33,364 nt of DNA from contig JBMFWW010000006.1 in assembly GCA_049964835.1 (NCBI GenBank), positions 1 to 33,364 on the forward strand, given 5' to 3'. Position numbers: made by a program. Of this stretch, positions 24,001-33,000 are shown in pieces. This stretch comes from Candidatus Micrarchaeia archaeon (lineage in GTDB: Archaea > Micrarchaeota > Micrarchaeia > Micrarchaeales > CABMGC01). How positions within the stretch are numbered: position 1 is the first letter of the stretch; every line of letters begins with the position of its first letter.

Positions 24001-27000
24001 AAAATCTTAAAAATAAAGTTAAAAAGTAAAAATAATTAATTAAATTATTTTGATTTCTTTGGCTGTGTTTTTATCTTTTGCATATCTTCTTTCTTTATGG
24101 CCAATCTTACTGAACCTGTACCTATCGGTATTTGTTTTCCTACAAGTATGTTTTCAGTAACACCACGCATGTTGTCTACTTCACTGAATGCTGCTGCGTT
24201 TACTAGGTGTTTGACAGTTTCTTCATAAGCAGCCTTTGCAAATACAGAGTCCTTCTGACCGCTTAATCCATGCCTGCCTATGCCTTTTATGCTTCCTGAA
24301 TAACACATAGCGTCTGCTATTAACATAAGATGTCTTAAATCGACCCCTATCTTTTGCTCATCAAGTGTATTTTTGAGCTCTCTTACAATGGTATTCCTTG
24401 CAGCTTCTATTCCAAAAAGACCATACATTGCAAAGACATCATTAGTGTATAATTTTGATTTGTCTACACCATCAACTTCTATTATGTCACGTATGTTGCT
24501 TCCTGCAGAGATTAAATAAAACTCTCCGGTCTTGTTATTTTGTTGTATTATTGTTTTTCCTGCGTCTGGTATTCCTTGAATTACATCCTTCATTATTTTT
24601 ACACTCATTGTTCTTATTTCAGCTACGTTCTTTGTCTTTAACTTTAGTATAATATTTTTATCCTTTTCAACATTTGCAGATACATTGAACTTTTTAGAGA
24701 TCTTCTGTGCAACCTGACTAGGAGTTAAATTATTTGCATTTAATGCCTGCTCATCTACTATTAGTTTTATCATTCCTTTTGGAAAGTTTTCAAGAACTCT
24801 TTTTATTATTGTTACCATCTTTACCTCGCTTATCTTTTTCATTATTGCTTCAGCTTTATCAAAATTTTTTCTTGCTTCGCTATTTAGATATATGTAAGTT
24901 ATAGGTGTGGCCGGCTTCTTCCTTGCATCAACAAGCTCAACAATTCTTGGCAAACCAGAAGTTGCTATAGTTGATTCAATACCTGCAAAGTGAAATGCTC
25001 TCAAAATCATCTGTGTTCCAGGTTCACCTAAAGACTGCGCAGCTACCATCCCTACGGGTTCACCATAATCTACAACATATTTTTGTTTTTTATCAGCCAT
25101 AAAATCAACTCTTTTCTACCCTTTCGAATCTCGATTCGGTAGGATTGACACCGTCTGCACCATAAATAGTTTGTATGATATTATTGTTAACGTCTCTTAC
25201 TGTAAGATCATTCTTAACATAATAATCTTGAAGTGCATTGGATAATCTCCTATATAGATACCCGCTTCTTCCTGTCAAAAGCGCCTTGTATACTTCTGAA
25301 CCTCTTGAACCTACCGCATGCATGAATAGTTCAATTGGACTCATACCTGCAAAATAGCTTTTTGTTATGAAGCCGTGAGCAACAGGACCCACATCATTAG
25401 GTGCAATATGGGGCAAAACTCTATTTGAGTAGTAACCTCTTTTTATTCTTCCTCCACTTAAGGTTGCTTGCTGCCCTAGAAACATGCTCATTTGTTCTAG
25501 GTTAAGTACATTACCTCTTGATCCTGCTTTTGTCATCTCTACTGCGCTATTTCCTTCTCCTTCATGCATTACAAGCATATTTCCAGCTTTGTTTCTTGCC
25601 ATGTTTAGCTCTGTTATTATAAGCCTTTCGAGAGACTCTCTTGTTGTATAACCTATAAGTGGCTCTAATTTTTTGGTTTTATATTCACTTATTAATTTGT
25701 TAACTTTTTCAAATGTTTCTTTTATTATTTGATTCTTTTCTGACTGCATTTTCTGATCTATTTCGTATTCTTTTACTCCTACTGTAACACCTGCAAGAGT
25801 TACATAAGCATCAGCAAGTTTTGCTGATTGGAATATGAAATCTCTTAATGCATCAAATCCGTAATTTATTGCTATTTTTATGAATAGATTATTTCCTTTT
25901 CCATAGGTATCATTTGTTACTGTACCTTCGATAAGTCTTCCATTCTTTATCTTAAACATGCCTGTTGATGTTTTTTCCTCAAAAGATAAATCCTTTGGTA
26001 GAAGCATAGAAAAAATATCCTTTCCACTAAATAAGCCATTTTTCTGAGCTTCTGGCAACTCGTAGATACCTGCAAGACCAAGCATATATTCTGTTTCATC
26101 TCTTGATAGATAAAGACCGTCTCTTGTTAAACTATAAAGACCGGTTATTCCGTCCTCTCCGTTAGCTATAATTGCTCCACCATTTTTAGGTGAGAATATC
26201 TGGTATTTTACATCCATCAGTATTCTTGCTTCGGCCTGTGCTTCTAATGTTTGAGGCACGTGAAGGTTCATTTCGTCTCCGTCGAAGTCCGCATTGTATG
26301 GAGATGCAGTACAGTAATTTATTCTGAAGGTTTTTCCTGGAAGTACCTTCACCTTATGTGCCATTATAGATATTCTGTGCAGGGTTGGTTGTCTGTTAAA
26401 CAGTACTATATCTCCATCGATTAGTTGTCTTTCTAATATATCTCCTGCTTTTATTTCTTTTGCTATTTCTTCTTTGTTTGCATCAAGAACTCTCTTTCTT
26501 TTTCCTTCTTTTGATATAAAGTTTAATATCGTAGGATAACTTTTGTTTAATATAAACTCTCTTGCTTTTTCAATGTTCCATTCAGTAACATAAAAAGGTA
26601 CCGTTAATCTCTCCGCTATTGACTGTGGTACACCCACCTCATCTATATTGACATAAGGATCTACACTTATTACAGTTCTTGCAGAATAGTTTACTCTCTT
26701 TCCGCTAAGGTTGTATCTGAAACGACCCTCTTTTCCCTTTAGTCTTTGAGCTAATGTTTTAAGAGCTCTTCCGCTTCTGTGCCTTGCCGGAGGTATTCCT
26801 GATGTTTCATTGTTGAAATATGCAGTTAAATGATACTGTAAAAGTTCCCAGAGATCATCAATTATTATTTGTGGTGCACCAGCATTTATGTTCTGCTCAA
26901 GCCTTTGATTAATTCTCATTATATCTACTAGCTTGTGAGTCAAATCGTCTTCGCTTCTTTCACCAGATTCTAGAGTTATTGATGGCCTCACATTTACTGG

Positions 27001-30000: not shown

Positions 30001-33000
30001 TTGCATAATGATCCTTGTCGTCTTGTCTTACTATTTTATTTGCTATAGCTGTTGATTTTTTCGCCATCTCTAAAAGATATCTTGCCTTTACAGATCTTGA
30101 TTTTTCATCATTTCCTAAGTGTGGCAATAAATAATTATCAATTTGTGTCTCTGCTCTTTTTATCTGGTAGTCCTTTGCCTGACCTGGAGCTGCCATTTTG
30201 CCTAATTCTAGCAAGGCTTCTTGTTTTGTAAGTATTCCTGTTTCTGGTTTTTCTTTATTAACAGAACTTAACTCAATATTAAGAAGGATATCATTTCTGA
30301 ACGGAAGTAAAACTGATGAGTACTCCTTTATTTCATCTAAATCCATACCCATTGCTTTTAGAAGCATAATTAACTCAATACTTCTGCTTATTGTAGGAAA
30401 GTCTACTGTAAATAAGCCGTTTTGAGTTCTTTTTACAACACATCTTGCTCTAAAACCAGGGGTTGATGAAAAAACTCTACTTTTAATTTCTGTACCTTTC
30501 TTTTCTCTTGTTGTAATTATTTTGTTTGAAGCTACATCGTCAAGGCCTATAAGAACTCTTTCGACTCCTTTTATTATAAAGTAACCACCAGGATCATCTG
30601 GATCCTCTCCGTTTTCTATTAATTGTGATCTACTCATGTTTTTCATGTGACACGAATTACTTCTTATCATTATAGGGATATCTCCAACATAAACTTCTCC
30701 GTAAGAAGCGGTTTTTTCGATACCTCTTATTACAGGAACCACTTCCATATAAAGAGGTGCTCCGTAAGTTATACTTCTTAAACGCGCTTCATTTGGCATT
30801 ATGTTTCTTCTAGAACTATCTGATTCTATTATAGATGGACTACCTATTCTTACGTTTCCTAACTTGAGTGCAAATCCCTCTACATTTGGTTCTATTATGT
30901 TTTGATTTCCCATGGCCTTTTGTATACCATTATCTAAAAAACGATTAAAACTGTCAATTTGGTGCTGCACTAAGGACGAGTTATTCAAATACGATGCTAA
31001 CAATAGATTTTTCTCTTCCATTTTATCAACTTATAAGAGGCTTTTAACCCTCTATAATAAATCTGTAATACAAATACTCTTTGCCGCCGTCATTTCTTTT
31101 TATCTCCACAACGTCACCAGGCTTTGCATTTATGTAAACTGCCTGTGGATCAGAGCTAAGAAGTTTAGGTAAATTTTCTGTCTTTAAATTTAATTTCTCA
31201 AGAATTTTTTTGGACTGCTCTTGCGTAAGCAACGTGTGAACTGGAACATTTTCATTAATGCTTTCTTTAACCATTAAAACACCTATAAGTAAAATAAGTA
31301 CTAAGACTAGAGTCTACTGCAAGCATCTAATATATTATGTCAAAAAGGTTTATATAACTATCTTAAAAAATAGTATATTAAATACCTTATTTTAAAGTTT
31401 ATTTTAGAAGATAGATTTTGCAGGAAATATTTATAACATTTTGCTTTTTTCCACTAATAAGAAAGGTATAAAAACGAGGAATATTATTACTTAATTGGTG
31501 GTGGTGTGGAGTTAAGTTCCAAAATAGATAAAGTTGAGAATAATATAAAGGAGTGTCTCATTACTCAGAAAGCATTATTTGAAGCTAGAAGAAAGGATAT
31601 TAAAAAGACCATATACACAGGTGCGATTGCAATCGGCTTATCGGTACCGGTAATTGTAGTTAATTATATACCTATTATAGAGAACTTTATCAAAAACAAG
31701 GATCTAAATCCTAGAACTTTAGGAGAAATGGGATTTTTTATAGGAACTAATATTTTAGTAAATGGAGTTGTAAGAAGTATAGAGTATTTAAGAATTGATA
31801 ATGAAATTGAAAAAAAACGAAATGAACTTGAGTCTTTCATGAGAGACCAAAAAGTTGAAACAACTCAAAACAATAACGTAAATAAAGGTGCAGAAAAGAG
31901 AAGAAATAAAAATAAAATGAGATTTAAGAAGAGCACAGATAATCCCAAATTTAGGAAGAATTAAGAAATTACTGAACATAAAGTAAAACTATCTCATTAA
32001 TTTGCTGGGGGTTCCAGACAGAAACTATCACTCTTCTATCATTAGGGTTTTCCTTAAGTTTTTTTACAAACTTAAAAAGTTGATCAGTGCATATATCCCA
32101 TATTTTTCCCATTTATTGGAGTCTCAAGCCTGTTTTCCTTACCATTTACCTCTTTTATAAAGTATCTATCATGAAGTGTCTGCAAACTGGTCTCTGTAAG
32201 TAGCTCGTCTCTTTTTGGTACCATGAACTCGCTTATCTTCTTAAGGTCAAACTCTAGTATGCGTTCTGATAAAAGAGGCTTTGTTTAAAAACTCCAAATC
32301 TGTCCAAAAACTCAATGGTTTGTTCATAAACTCACAGTTTTTAAACAAGGCTGATAAAAACCTTTTGAGACTTCGCTCTTTGCTTCCCTTAACTGCCTAT
32401 GTCTTTCCCTATATAATATGTAAGCTTTTGCAACATCATATAATCCTAAACACATCAAGCTTTCTTCAACAAGGTCTTGTATTTCTTCTACCATCGGCAT
32501 TCCTTTCCCTATGTATCTCTCTTACCTTATCTTGACTACCGTTTCTGCTATGTTCTTTGATTTTTCTAAATCTACTTTGCCCTTTACTGCAAATGTAGCA
32601 TTAGATATGGCATTTATTACTTTTGTGACATCCTCCCACCCGTAAACGGCGTGGGCTTCCTTTACATTCATGCAACCACTGCATCCTGCAAAGGATGTAT
32701 TTTATCGGTTCTCAGTTCCTTGAGAACAGCCTCCTGTTGAGGTCTTACACTCTCTCCCTGAGCGTAACTTCCCCTCTGCCCGAGGGTAGTTGCTCTATGC
32801 AATATGTTTATTGACGCGTTTATGTCCCTATCTATTGTCAGTCCACAGACGTTGCAGTGATATACTCTGTCTTCAGGCCACAGCCTTTCGTTTCCTGTTT
32901 TTATGTTATGGCACTTGCTGCATTCCTGCGTTGTGTCTTTAGGGTCTACTTTTATTACTTTCATACCAGCACTTTCAGCCTTGTATGAAAGAAATTGAAT

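Follow-up and report, generated by a model that had tools for sequence, protein, structure and literature searches.

No transcript cleavage factor TFS in a Micrarchaeota genome with an archaeal RNA polymerase, and a short-linker TFS in a minority of the phylum

RNA polymerase operon and transcription apparatus

The window analysed here, the whole 33,364-nucleotide stretch of contig JBMFWW010000006.1 from a Candidatus Micrarchaeia archaeon (assembly GCA_049964835.1), carries an RNA polymerase (RNAP) operon in the order Rpo5-Rpo2N-Rpo2C-Rpo1N-Rpo1C at 24045-31274 (Table 1). Pfam domains on the five minus-strand reading frames uphold the operon as first annotated. The funnel domain of Rpo1N, where TFS would enter, is intact, with Rpb1 domain 4 at residues 667-774 covering profile positions 2-107 of 107, and Rpo1C matches a solved archaeal Rpo1C at E 8.7e-80. 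Its trigger loop keeps the catalytic His, has no insertion in alignments to solved archaeal subunits, and carries an Arg where the Thermococcales have Asn, as do solved Sulfolobales subunits.

Table 1. Coordinates of RNAP subunits, the trigger loop and the zinc-ribbon protein X180 (positions in the window unless a contig is named).
Feature	Position	Strand	Description
Rpo5 (RpoH), 76 aa	31044..31274	-	PF01191 RNA_pol_Rpb5_C, E 5.6e-20; first operon gene
Rpo2N (B''), 499 aa	29522..31021	-	Rpb2 domains 1, 2, 3; E 5.7e-50 to 1.7e-20
Rpo2C (B'), 606 aa	27692..29512	-	Rpb2 domains 4, 5, 6, 7; domain 6 E 4.3e-123
Rpo1N (A'), 860 aa	25105..27687	-	Rpb1 domains 1-4 and start of domain 5
Rpo1C (A''), 351 aa	24045..25100	-	Rpb1 domain 5, E 2.4e-44
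Trigger loop core of Rpo1C, GEPGTQMILRAFHFAG, residues 25-40	24981..25028	-	Translation and alignments to solved archaeal subunits
Rpo3 (RpoD), 190 aa	5726..6295	+	PF01000, PF01193; located among the window's clustered ribosomal protein genes
Rpo10 (RpoN), 66 aa	7792..7989	+	PF01194, E 2e-30
Rpo12	C19:8303-8434		Found elsewhere in the assembly
X180, 179 aa	C19:8743-9279	-	New N-terminal beta domain, central zinc ribbon of putative TFIIS/Rpb9 type, C-terminal helical domain

Other contigs of the assembly encode Rpo4 (C13), Rpo6 (C28), Rpo7 and Spt4 (both C1), the NGN domain of Spt5 (C3), TFB (C23) and TFE-alpha (C22), and the genome has two single-repeat TBP genes. Matches were thus found for the Rpo3, 4, 6, 7, 10 and 12, TFB, TFE-alpha and Spt4/5 genes listed in the initial annotation, in a check that covered all its subunits but Rpo11. 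An aCPSF1/FttA protein is also encoded (785.6 bits; cut-off 580.2). A six-frame search of the genome for the GreA/GreB C-terminal domain (PF01272) found nothing at E <= 1, with a control matching 11 of 14 genomes; to our knowledge, Gre and TFS are not homologous. The assembly consists of 46 contigs interrupted by some 22 stretches of N, of which seven span 268-515 bases, and is 94.4% complete; its gaps are big enough to conceal a 255-base gene.

TFS in this genome and across the phylum

TFS normally rescues stalled or backtracked RNAP, and its reported absence from this genome was upheld in all six frames by family models, a lineage profile and a motif scan. For the C-terminal TFIIS-type C4 ribbon, PF01096 (cut-off 21 bits) reached at best 12.5 bits (E 0.145, stops read through), reproducing the earlier value exactly and locating it in ribosomal protein L40e. 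The best six-frame matches, likewise with stops read through, of TIGR01384 (22.7 bits, N-terminal ribbon only, positions 1-42) and PF02150 (E 0.74) both fell in ribosomal protein S27ae, a 52-aa protein whose identity was confirmed as PF01599, and no protein of about 85-115 aa in the genome combined an N-terminal Rpb9-type ribbon with the C-terminal one. A lineage HMM trained on 13 TFS proteins from Micrarchaeota, of both forms described below, and run unfiltered against the 14,468 six-frame ORFs of at least 25 aa reached E 0.029 at best and nothing above 14 bits, and those of its weak matches that were inspected are other known proteins. A regular expression for a ribbon with an acidic pair returned seven matches among all six-frame ORFs, none resembling TFS; inspection by eye showed, among others, proteins like NMD3, TnpB and ferredoxin and a microprotein with four CxxC motifs. 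No small ORF combines two ribbons with an acidic hairpin, and no Cys-pair ORF carries such a hairpin in the right geometry.

Across 201 sampled Micrarchaeota genomes, PF01096 exceeded its cut-off in 17; reading the frames left 14 of TFS type and three that are not (one X180-family, one NrdR-like and one transposase-like). One further TFS scores under the cut-off, so that 15 genomes have a ribbon of TFS type that includes the acidic D-E pair and 186 (about 93%) do not, counts that rest on metagenome-assembled genomes, mostly 86-98% complete. The lineage profile picks out the same 15 among the 201 (E <= 3.6e-10). Its next-best match, at E 1.7e-5 in G188, is by eye rubrerythrin-like, and the weak matches that cluster from E 5e-5 to 3e-3 belong to multi-ribbon proteins that lack the D-E pair. 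Carriers are confined to two families, one with 2 carriers in 36 genomes and the other with 13 in 56, with none among the other 109, and include the cultivated type genus Ca. Micrarchaeum, whose TFS is annotated in public databases as 'transcription factor S'.

The initial annotation had pointed to ribbon matches in a minority of genomes, and these are not noise but genuine TFS. Thirteen of the 15 carriers have real two-ribbon TFS genes, mostly in an 84-aa short-linker form (range 81-88 aa); the order holds two forms, of 84 aa and of 114-116 aa. In an alignment of 12 sequences (A1), C5, C8, C25, C28, C42, C45, C70 and C73 are invariant, as are D61 and E62. One short member scores 42.7 bits with PF01096 and 24.9 bits with PF02150, and among solved proteins the short form matches RPC10, Rpb9, RPA12 and 1qyp, the C-domain of Thermococcus celer TFS, with E from 2e-12 to 7e-10. 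Like the canonical family of TFS, RPC10 (C11), RPA12, Rpb9 and TFIIS, it has both ribbons, the cysteines and the D-E pair, but it is about 27 linker residues shorter than RPC10 and Rpb9; the genome studied here has no gene of this family at all. The long-linker variants, with an 'RFNDE' hairpin, reach 19-22 bits with Pfam and E 1e-26 with the lineage profile, and PF01096 scores among true TFS run from 45.9 down to about 19 bits without a break. None of five carrier genomes exceeds the TIGR01384 cut-off of 64.75 (best 33.5 bits). The earlier count of no Micrarchaeota genome over that cut-off therefore stands but carries little weight, because the model misses real Micrarchaeota TFS, and for the same reason annotation pipelines will under-call them.

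These properties bear on whether this genome encodes a TFS homologue too divergent, small or Cys-poor for the models used. A still more divergent TFS is conceivable because the models are short, rest largely on cysteines and, in the curated case, fall well short of their cut-off on real Micrarchaeota TFS; the continuous slide in PF01096 scores and the existence of two quite different forms point the same way. We nonetheless consider such a homologue improbable, given that the unfiltered two-form profile found nothing above 14 bits, that it separates the 15 carriers from the next match by several orders of magnitude in E, and that no Cys-pair ORF has a suitable acidic hairpin. Synteny in genus g22 also speaks against it: two endonuclease III-like genes flank TFS in G010, whereas a 191-aa gene fills this slot in G075 and just about 75 bases separate the flanking genes in G178, the contig being unbroken there in both.

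An artefact limited to this genome, with the TFS gene in an assembly gap or on an unbinned contig, would fit the contig number, N runs and completeness of the assembly, but we regard it as very improbable. TFS is likewise missing from the same-genus genome G100, from 33 of 35 other genomes of the family and from its single-contig members G038 and G042. At the sole local synteny anchor, a parvulin gene that precedes TFS in G101, a glycosyltransferase gene here starts 10 bases after the parvulin gene and leaves no room for TFS.

Altogether, six of seven single-contig genomes lack TFS (G038, G042, G016, G033, G099 and G193; G107 has one), as does a named chromosome-level record. Because single-contig genomes lack the gene and its slot in genus g22 is empty or otherwise occupied on unbroken contigs, the absence is genuine, and not an assembly or HMM artefact. 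The initial annotation had called it a genuine loss common to nearly all Micrarchaeota. The absence is indeed real and widespread (186 of 201 genomes), but the phylum is not uniformly TFS-less, and 'loss' goes a step beyond the observed absence when carriers occur in only two families. Since all 15 carriers belong to these two families and none to the other 109 genomes, an ancestral loss followed by regain may also explain the pattern. TFS in Micrarchaeota is an accessory, dispensable factor whose presence varies even within genera.

X180, a zinc-ribbon protein encoded beside a histone gene

Alternatively, an unrecognised factor might replace TFS, the concrete candidate being X180 (Table 1), which would attach to RNAP at its funnel or jaw in the manner of Rpb9, TFS4 or TFS. 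X180 occurs in 88 of the 201 genomes, including 33 of 35 genomes in one and 54 of 56 in the other of the two families that make up this genome's order, and always in single copy. The gene order histone-X180-PRC-barrel is kept in 35 of 35 loci, with neighbours confirmed by Pfam, and wherever rpo12 was seen (25 of these loci) it lies in convergent orientation beyond the PRC-barrel gene, mostly within an Rrp42-L37ae-p123-Rpo12 run. Relatives score 17.9-24.9 bits with PF01096, the top one over the cut-off; the protein of this genome gives no match at E <= 1. Against solved structures, the best matches of an X180 profile are RPA12 (E 0.034) and TFIIS (E 0.071). The AlphaFold model is confident (pLDDT 92.9); Foldseek returned many Rpb9 chains at E 0.36-1.2, and in the ESM Atlas structure search seven of ten rows are TFS/Rpb9 clusters over residues ~72-128, all under the tool's bar.

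However, these ribbon similarities are all below significance, and hhalign of X180 against the TFS alignment gave just 53% probability, to the N-terminal ribbon. Aligning 32 members shows no acidic pair kept in the ribbon loop, the first position being D, A, K, S, N, E or V and the second V, I or L, which excludes canonical catalysis by X180. Nor is X180 a strict replacement, because it accompanies TFS in 15 of 15 TFS carriers. A single query did not find it in the other 109 genomes, which themselves lack TFS. The histone operon fits a role in chromatin equally well. We therefore regard X180 as a weak candidate substitute for TFS, and replacement of TFS by an unrecognised factor as unlikely.

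The putative TFIIS-type ribbon of X180, which lacks the D-E pair, would have counterparts in Rpb9 and in TFS4 of the Sulfolobales, a TFS paralogue lacking the acidic pair that is described as an RNAP inhibitor (PMC5715097). A further and rather doubtful reading is that the Micrarchaeota polymerase, or a lineage-specific partner, took over the work of the secondary-channel cleavage factor and, at its boldest, that X180, as a core protein, derives from TFS and became a catalytically disarmed, stable Rpb9-like subunit of polymerase or chromatin in the order, leaving true TFS dispensable and lost piecemeal. If true, this phylum would show in nature how backtracked RNAP of the archaeal and eukaryotic type is rescued without a factor.

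Transcriptional arrest without a cleavage factor

Methanopyrus kandleri is free-living and hyperthermophilic. According to two reviews, TFS is conserved in all archaea but this species, which, as here, has a full archaeal RNAP and basal factors without TFS (PMC7289017, PMC5715097). That case is one species, whereas here the factor is missing from 186 of 201 sampled genomes in a phylum made up of small symbionts, and its presence varies within a genus. Our literature search found no publication reporting the absence of TFS in Micrarchaeota. Cyanobacteria are another large lineage without a secondary-channel cleavage factor, and the working model there is that high intrinsic hydrolysis by their RNAP makes up for the missing Gre factors (Riaz-Bradley et al. 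2020, PMC7026648). This high activity was measured in cyanobacteria, whereas in Micrarchaeota it is a prediction; in addition, cyanobacterial RNAP has a large trigger-loop insertion (PMC10895346), of which this Rpo1C has none.

With moderate confidence, we favour the reading that an archaeal RNAP operates here without TFS and that arrest is handled without any secondary-channel factor, by hydrolysis and termination. Backtracked or arrested polymerase would be dealt with by two routes. One would be the polymerase's own trigger-loop-dependent hydrolysis, by analogy with cyanobacteria lacking Gre; the other would be removal of dead-end complexes by termination through the encoded aCPSF1/FttA-type nuclease. 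Slower rescue would cost less in an organism that has a small genome, about 0.8 Mb, and grows slowly as a symbiont. Trigger loops compared across 38 Micrarchaeota are alike whether the genome has TFS or a TFS fusion (14 genomes) or neither (24), and this comparison yielded no sequence sign of compensation for the missing factor.

That about nine in ten sampled genomes have no TFS, and that close relatives have a shortened one, contradicts these reviews (PMC7289017, PMC5715097). Within the phylum, one and the same polymerase can be compared in its natural state with TFS and without it, and cultivated Micrarchaeota now exist. It can now be tested how an archaeal, Pol II-like polymerase proofreads and escapes arrest without a cleavage factor, whether an almost linkerless 84-aa TFS reaches the active site, and whether termination factors or new partners step in.

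RNA polymerase and the search for TFS

The RNA polymerase operon that the initial annotation placed at window positions 24045-31274 is borne out by Pfam domains on five consecutive minus-strand ORFs, and the genes for Rpo3 and Rpo10 also lie inside the window. Further parts of the archaeal transcription apparatus were confirmed in the genome, with Rpo3, Rpo10, Rpo12, Rpo4, Rpo6, Rpo7, Spt4, Spt5-NGN, TFB and TFE-alpha all identified. Within Rpo1N, the funnel domain (Rpb1 domain 4), which is the part that TFS would enter, gave an end-to-end Pfam match. TBP is encoded by two separate single-repeat genes instead of one two-repeat gene, and their products may pair as a heterodimer. 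The window also contains a CPDase-like gene, immediately downstream of Rpo1C, and a LigT-like gene, both of the 2H-phosphoesterase type, as well as a TnpB/Cas12f-like gene (OrfB_IS605 and TNB domains). The last is separated from the operon start by two small ORFs, on its downstream side, and is cut by the window end; ribbons resembling the one it encodes occur at two contig ends. Coordinates are collected in the table.

Coordinates of features in the genome under study (window; contigs C) and in other sampled genomes (G) and loci (L)
Feature	Location	Strand	Remark
Rpo5	window 31044-31274	-	Pfam domain
Rpo2N	window 29522-31021	-	Pfam domains
Rpo2C	window 27692-29512	-	Pfam domains
Rpo1N	window 25105-27687	-	Pfam domains
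Rpo1C	window 24045-25100	-	Pfam domain; E 8.7e-80 in alignment to solved archaeal subunits
Rpo1C trigger loop	window 24981-25028	-	
2H-phosphoesterase-type gene	window 23374-23913	-	
2H-phosphoesterase-type gene	window 4465-4998	+	
TnpB/Cas12f-like gene	window 32668-33360	-	
Ribbon resembling the TnpB/Cas12f-like one	C12:27-200		contig end
Ribbon resembling the TnpB/Cas12f-like one	C18:2-154		contig end
TBP single-repeat gene, L289	C13:12865-13107	-	frames of the pair 129 and 121 aa, 100 and 92 bits
TBP single-repeat gene, L290	C12:6257-6505	+	see L289
X180	C19:8743-9279	-	
Short-linker TFS	L008:17-268		relatives; others exist
Short-linker TFS	L011:1483-1734	-	relatives
Short-linker TFS	L016:1369-1632		relatives
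Long TFS form	L019:1291-1635		relatives; 'RFNDE' hairpin
Long TFS form	L025:1297-1638		relatives; 'RFNDE' hairpin
DUF6879-TFS C-ribbon fusion	L007:955-1623		G104; fusions 223-232 aa
DUF6879-TFS C-ribbon fusion	L009:928-1623		G023
Rpo1C start	G087:C5:71-340		
Rpo1C start	G087:C8:134742-135008		
Rpo1C match in a single open frame	G020:C6:14285-14542		
Rpo1C match in a single open frame	G046:C14:9278-9544		
Rpo1C match in a single open frame	G055:C1:162280-162534		
Rpo1C match in a single open frame	G018:C12:7112-8908		

The initial annotation had also reported that this genome encodes no TFS, and the claim held under six-frame family models, a lineage-specific HMM and a Cys-pattern search. Six-frame searches, which read through stop codons, gave best values of E 0.145 and 12.5 bits for PF01096, E 0.74 for PF02150 and 22.7 bits for TIGR01384, the last over model positions 1-42 only. 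Placed on reading frames, the best matches of these models proved to be the ribosomal proteins L40e and S27ae, the latter confirmed by Pfam. A lineage-specific form might escape short general models, so we trained an HMM on 13 true TFS genes from relatives and ran it with all filters off against 14,468 stop-to-stop ORFs of at least 25 aa. The best match reached only E 0.029, and those inspected were, judged by sequence, NMD3-like, RNHCP-like, Trm1, Rpo12, MBF1, L37ae, L44e, aIF2-beta, S26e, MsrB and aIF1 proteins; no frame held half of a TFS. An acidic-pair ribbon pattern and a reading of all 56 small ORFs with at least two Cys pairs yielded no two-ribbon or acidic-hairpin protein, and GreA/B was not found in the genome. 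By itself the assembly is no proof that TFS is absent: it is 94.4% complete and consists of 46 contigs with about 22 runs of N, of which seven measure 268-515 bases.

TFS genes across Micrarchaeota

We then surveyed 201 genomes of the phylum, of which 152 reach a completeness of 90% or more; the unpublished genomes G029 and G197 are included in the tallies. PF01096 scored over its cut-off in 17 of the 201. Reading 30 frames with PF01096 matches, we found 13 real two-ribbon proteins and two fusions of DUF6879 to a TFS C-terminal ribbon; the remaining frames were transposase ribbons, proteins that look NrdR-like by eye, members of the X180 family (see below) and two more. The lineage TFS profile recovered the same 15 genomes, all at E ≤ 3.6e-10, and no other convincing match; the next best has E 1.7e-5. 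Below that come weak matches to profile positions 4-49 in frames of about 110 aa from other families, which were considered as diverged TFS and rejected, as they have six CxxC pairs but lack the D-E pair. These proteins form a conserved group with an N-terminal 'MGLL(E/D)' helix (loci L052-L056, L058, L059 and L062-L065).

The 81-88-aa form accounts for 11 of the two-ribbon proteins, and in it about 12 residues join the N-terminal to the C-terminal ribbon. The other two, 114-115 aa long with an 'RFNDE' hairpin, belong to a second form of 114-116 aa. An alignment of 12 of these proteins shows all eight Cys residues and the D-E pair to be invariant, and among solved structures their profile finds RPC10, Rpb9, RPA12 and the Thermococcus celer TFS C-domain (E 2e-12 to 7e-10), which together identify them as genuine TFS genes. 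Compared with RPC10 and Rpb9, the short-linker form lacks about 27 residues, all in the linker. The two fusions keep a G-D-E hairpin, and the genomes that encode them have no two-ribbon TFS. A search of a large protein collection with the TFS alignment indicated a narrow group of 22 proteins, all of one family. The TFS of Ca. Micrarchaeum is already named 'transcription factor S' in public databases; Ca. Micrarchaeum sp. A_DKE has this gene in its complete genome. Both forms fall below the TIGR01384 cut-off and are therefore under-annotated by pipelines: none of five carriers exceeded it, the best reaching 33.5 bits. This failure on real Micrarchaeota genes explains why the initial annotation counted 0 of 61 genomes over the TIGR01384 cut-off, a count that consequently says little. 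The long-linker TFS form and the X180 ribbon both give weak matches to DUF7351 (PF24042); with 0 of 201 genomes over its cut-off, this model is uninformative.

TFS carriers make up 2 of 36 genomes in the family of the genome under study (itself counted), and 13 of 56 in the sister family of the same order; the remaining 23 families, with 109 genomes, have none. Six of the seven single-contig genomes lack TFS (G038, G042, G016, G033, G099 and G193; G107 has it), as do a chromosome-level record and two records with contigs above 700 kb. Presence is mixed even within genera (3/6 in g22 and 1/2 in g17). In g22, two endonuclease III-like genes flank the TFS gene of G010; G075 has in that slot a 191-aa gene that looks by eye like a Ham1-type NTPase, and in G178 about 75 bases separate the left flank from the gene that in G010 is found two genes further on, with both contigs unbroken across the slot. 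In G101, the carrier closest to our genome, TFS follows a parvulin gene; after the parvulin homologue here (64% identical) come 10 bases and then a glycosyltransferase gene on the opposite strand. Apart from this, gene order near TFS shows little conservation, and the TFS locus of G164 gave no usable DNA match in G193 or G160. The genome G087 is possibly a mixed bin: it has two TFS-type genes, and of its two Rpo1C starts one closely resembles those of the family studied here.

With 15 carriers among 201 genomes and slots in relatives that are empty or hold another gene, the absence of TFS is genuine, as the initial annotation had proposed for nearly all Micrarchaeota. Its interpretation is supported in part: a loss may explain the absence, and a regain in the carriers may also have taken place.

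X180, a candidate polymerase partner

Six weak PF01096 matches in relatives belong to X180, a family of proteins of about 180 aa with a member in this genome. A search with a single query found X180 in 88 of the 201 genomes: of the two families that include TFS carriers, one has it in 33 of 35 genomes and the other in 54 of 56, and none was found elsewhere. Genes for a histone (PF00808), X180 and a PRC-barrel protein (PF05239) follow one another in that order in 35 of 35 loci, and rpo12 lies convergent beyond the PRC-barrel gene in the 25 loci where it was seen, mostly in an Rrp42-L37ae-p123-Rpo12 run. Several weak lines of evidence point to a TFIIS/Rpb9-type ribbon in X180. The X180 loop shows no conserved acidic pair in the alignment, and X180 is present wherever TFS exists among the 201 genomes. 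X180 cannot be a canonical cleavage factor; it may bind the polymerase in the manner of Rpb9 or TFS4, or belong to chromatin.

Transcription in the absence of TFS

The Rpo1C trigger loop of this genome, GEPGTQMILRAFHFAG, has Arg where the Thermococcales loop, TQMTLNTFHYAG, has Asn. We compared 38 Micrarchaeota (12 with TFS, two with a fusion and 24 without) and rejected this Arg as a signal of compensation, because 35 of the 38 have Arg or Lys at this position irrespective of TFS and solved Sulfolobales subunits have Arg too. Solved archaeal enzymes have Thr within the QMTL of 'TQMTL', where 36 of 36 sequences of the two carrier-containing families have Ile, Val or Met, also independently of TFS; members of two other families keep the Thr. 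In some other families the Rpo1C match falls in a single frame of 1130-1151 aa, so that Rpo1N and Rpo1C are apparently unsplit; the frame of G018 is 1669 aa with a split match, and may contain an insertion such as an intein.

The genome encodes an aCPSF1/FttA-type nuclease (785.6 bits), a type with a role in termination (PMC8501993). Cyanobacteria have no cleavage factor and a self-cleaving polymerase, according to PMC7026648. By analogy, the best available model for Micrarchaeota would be the cyanobacterial one, in which there is no factor and the polymerase performs cleavage itself; termination would clear dead-end complexes in addition to this self-cleavage.

A 2018 review (PMC7289017) and a 2017 research article (PMC5715097) name M. 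kandleri as the sole exception to the conservation of TFS across archaea. In full-text searches no paper tied Micrarchaeota or DPANN to TFS absence, which supplementary gene tables may nonetheless record, and the Micrarchaeota papers covered contained 0 occurrences of 'TFS'. No mention of the absence in Micrarchaeota was found in the pertinent passages of PMC7289017 and PMC13257274, and the portions of three Micrarchaeota/DPANN genome papers covered by term searches (PMC5498576, PMC5864196 and PMC6349945) are silent on transcription machinery. Those supplementary files of PMC7414124 that were covered list no TFIIS, COG1594 or RPB9. Lineages without a cleavage factor are already known in M. kandleri and cyanobacteria; Micrarchaeota are a new and much larger archaeal case.
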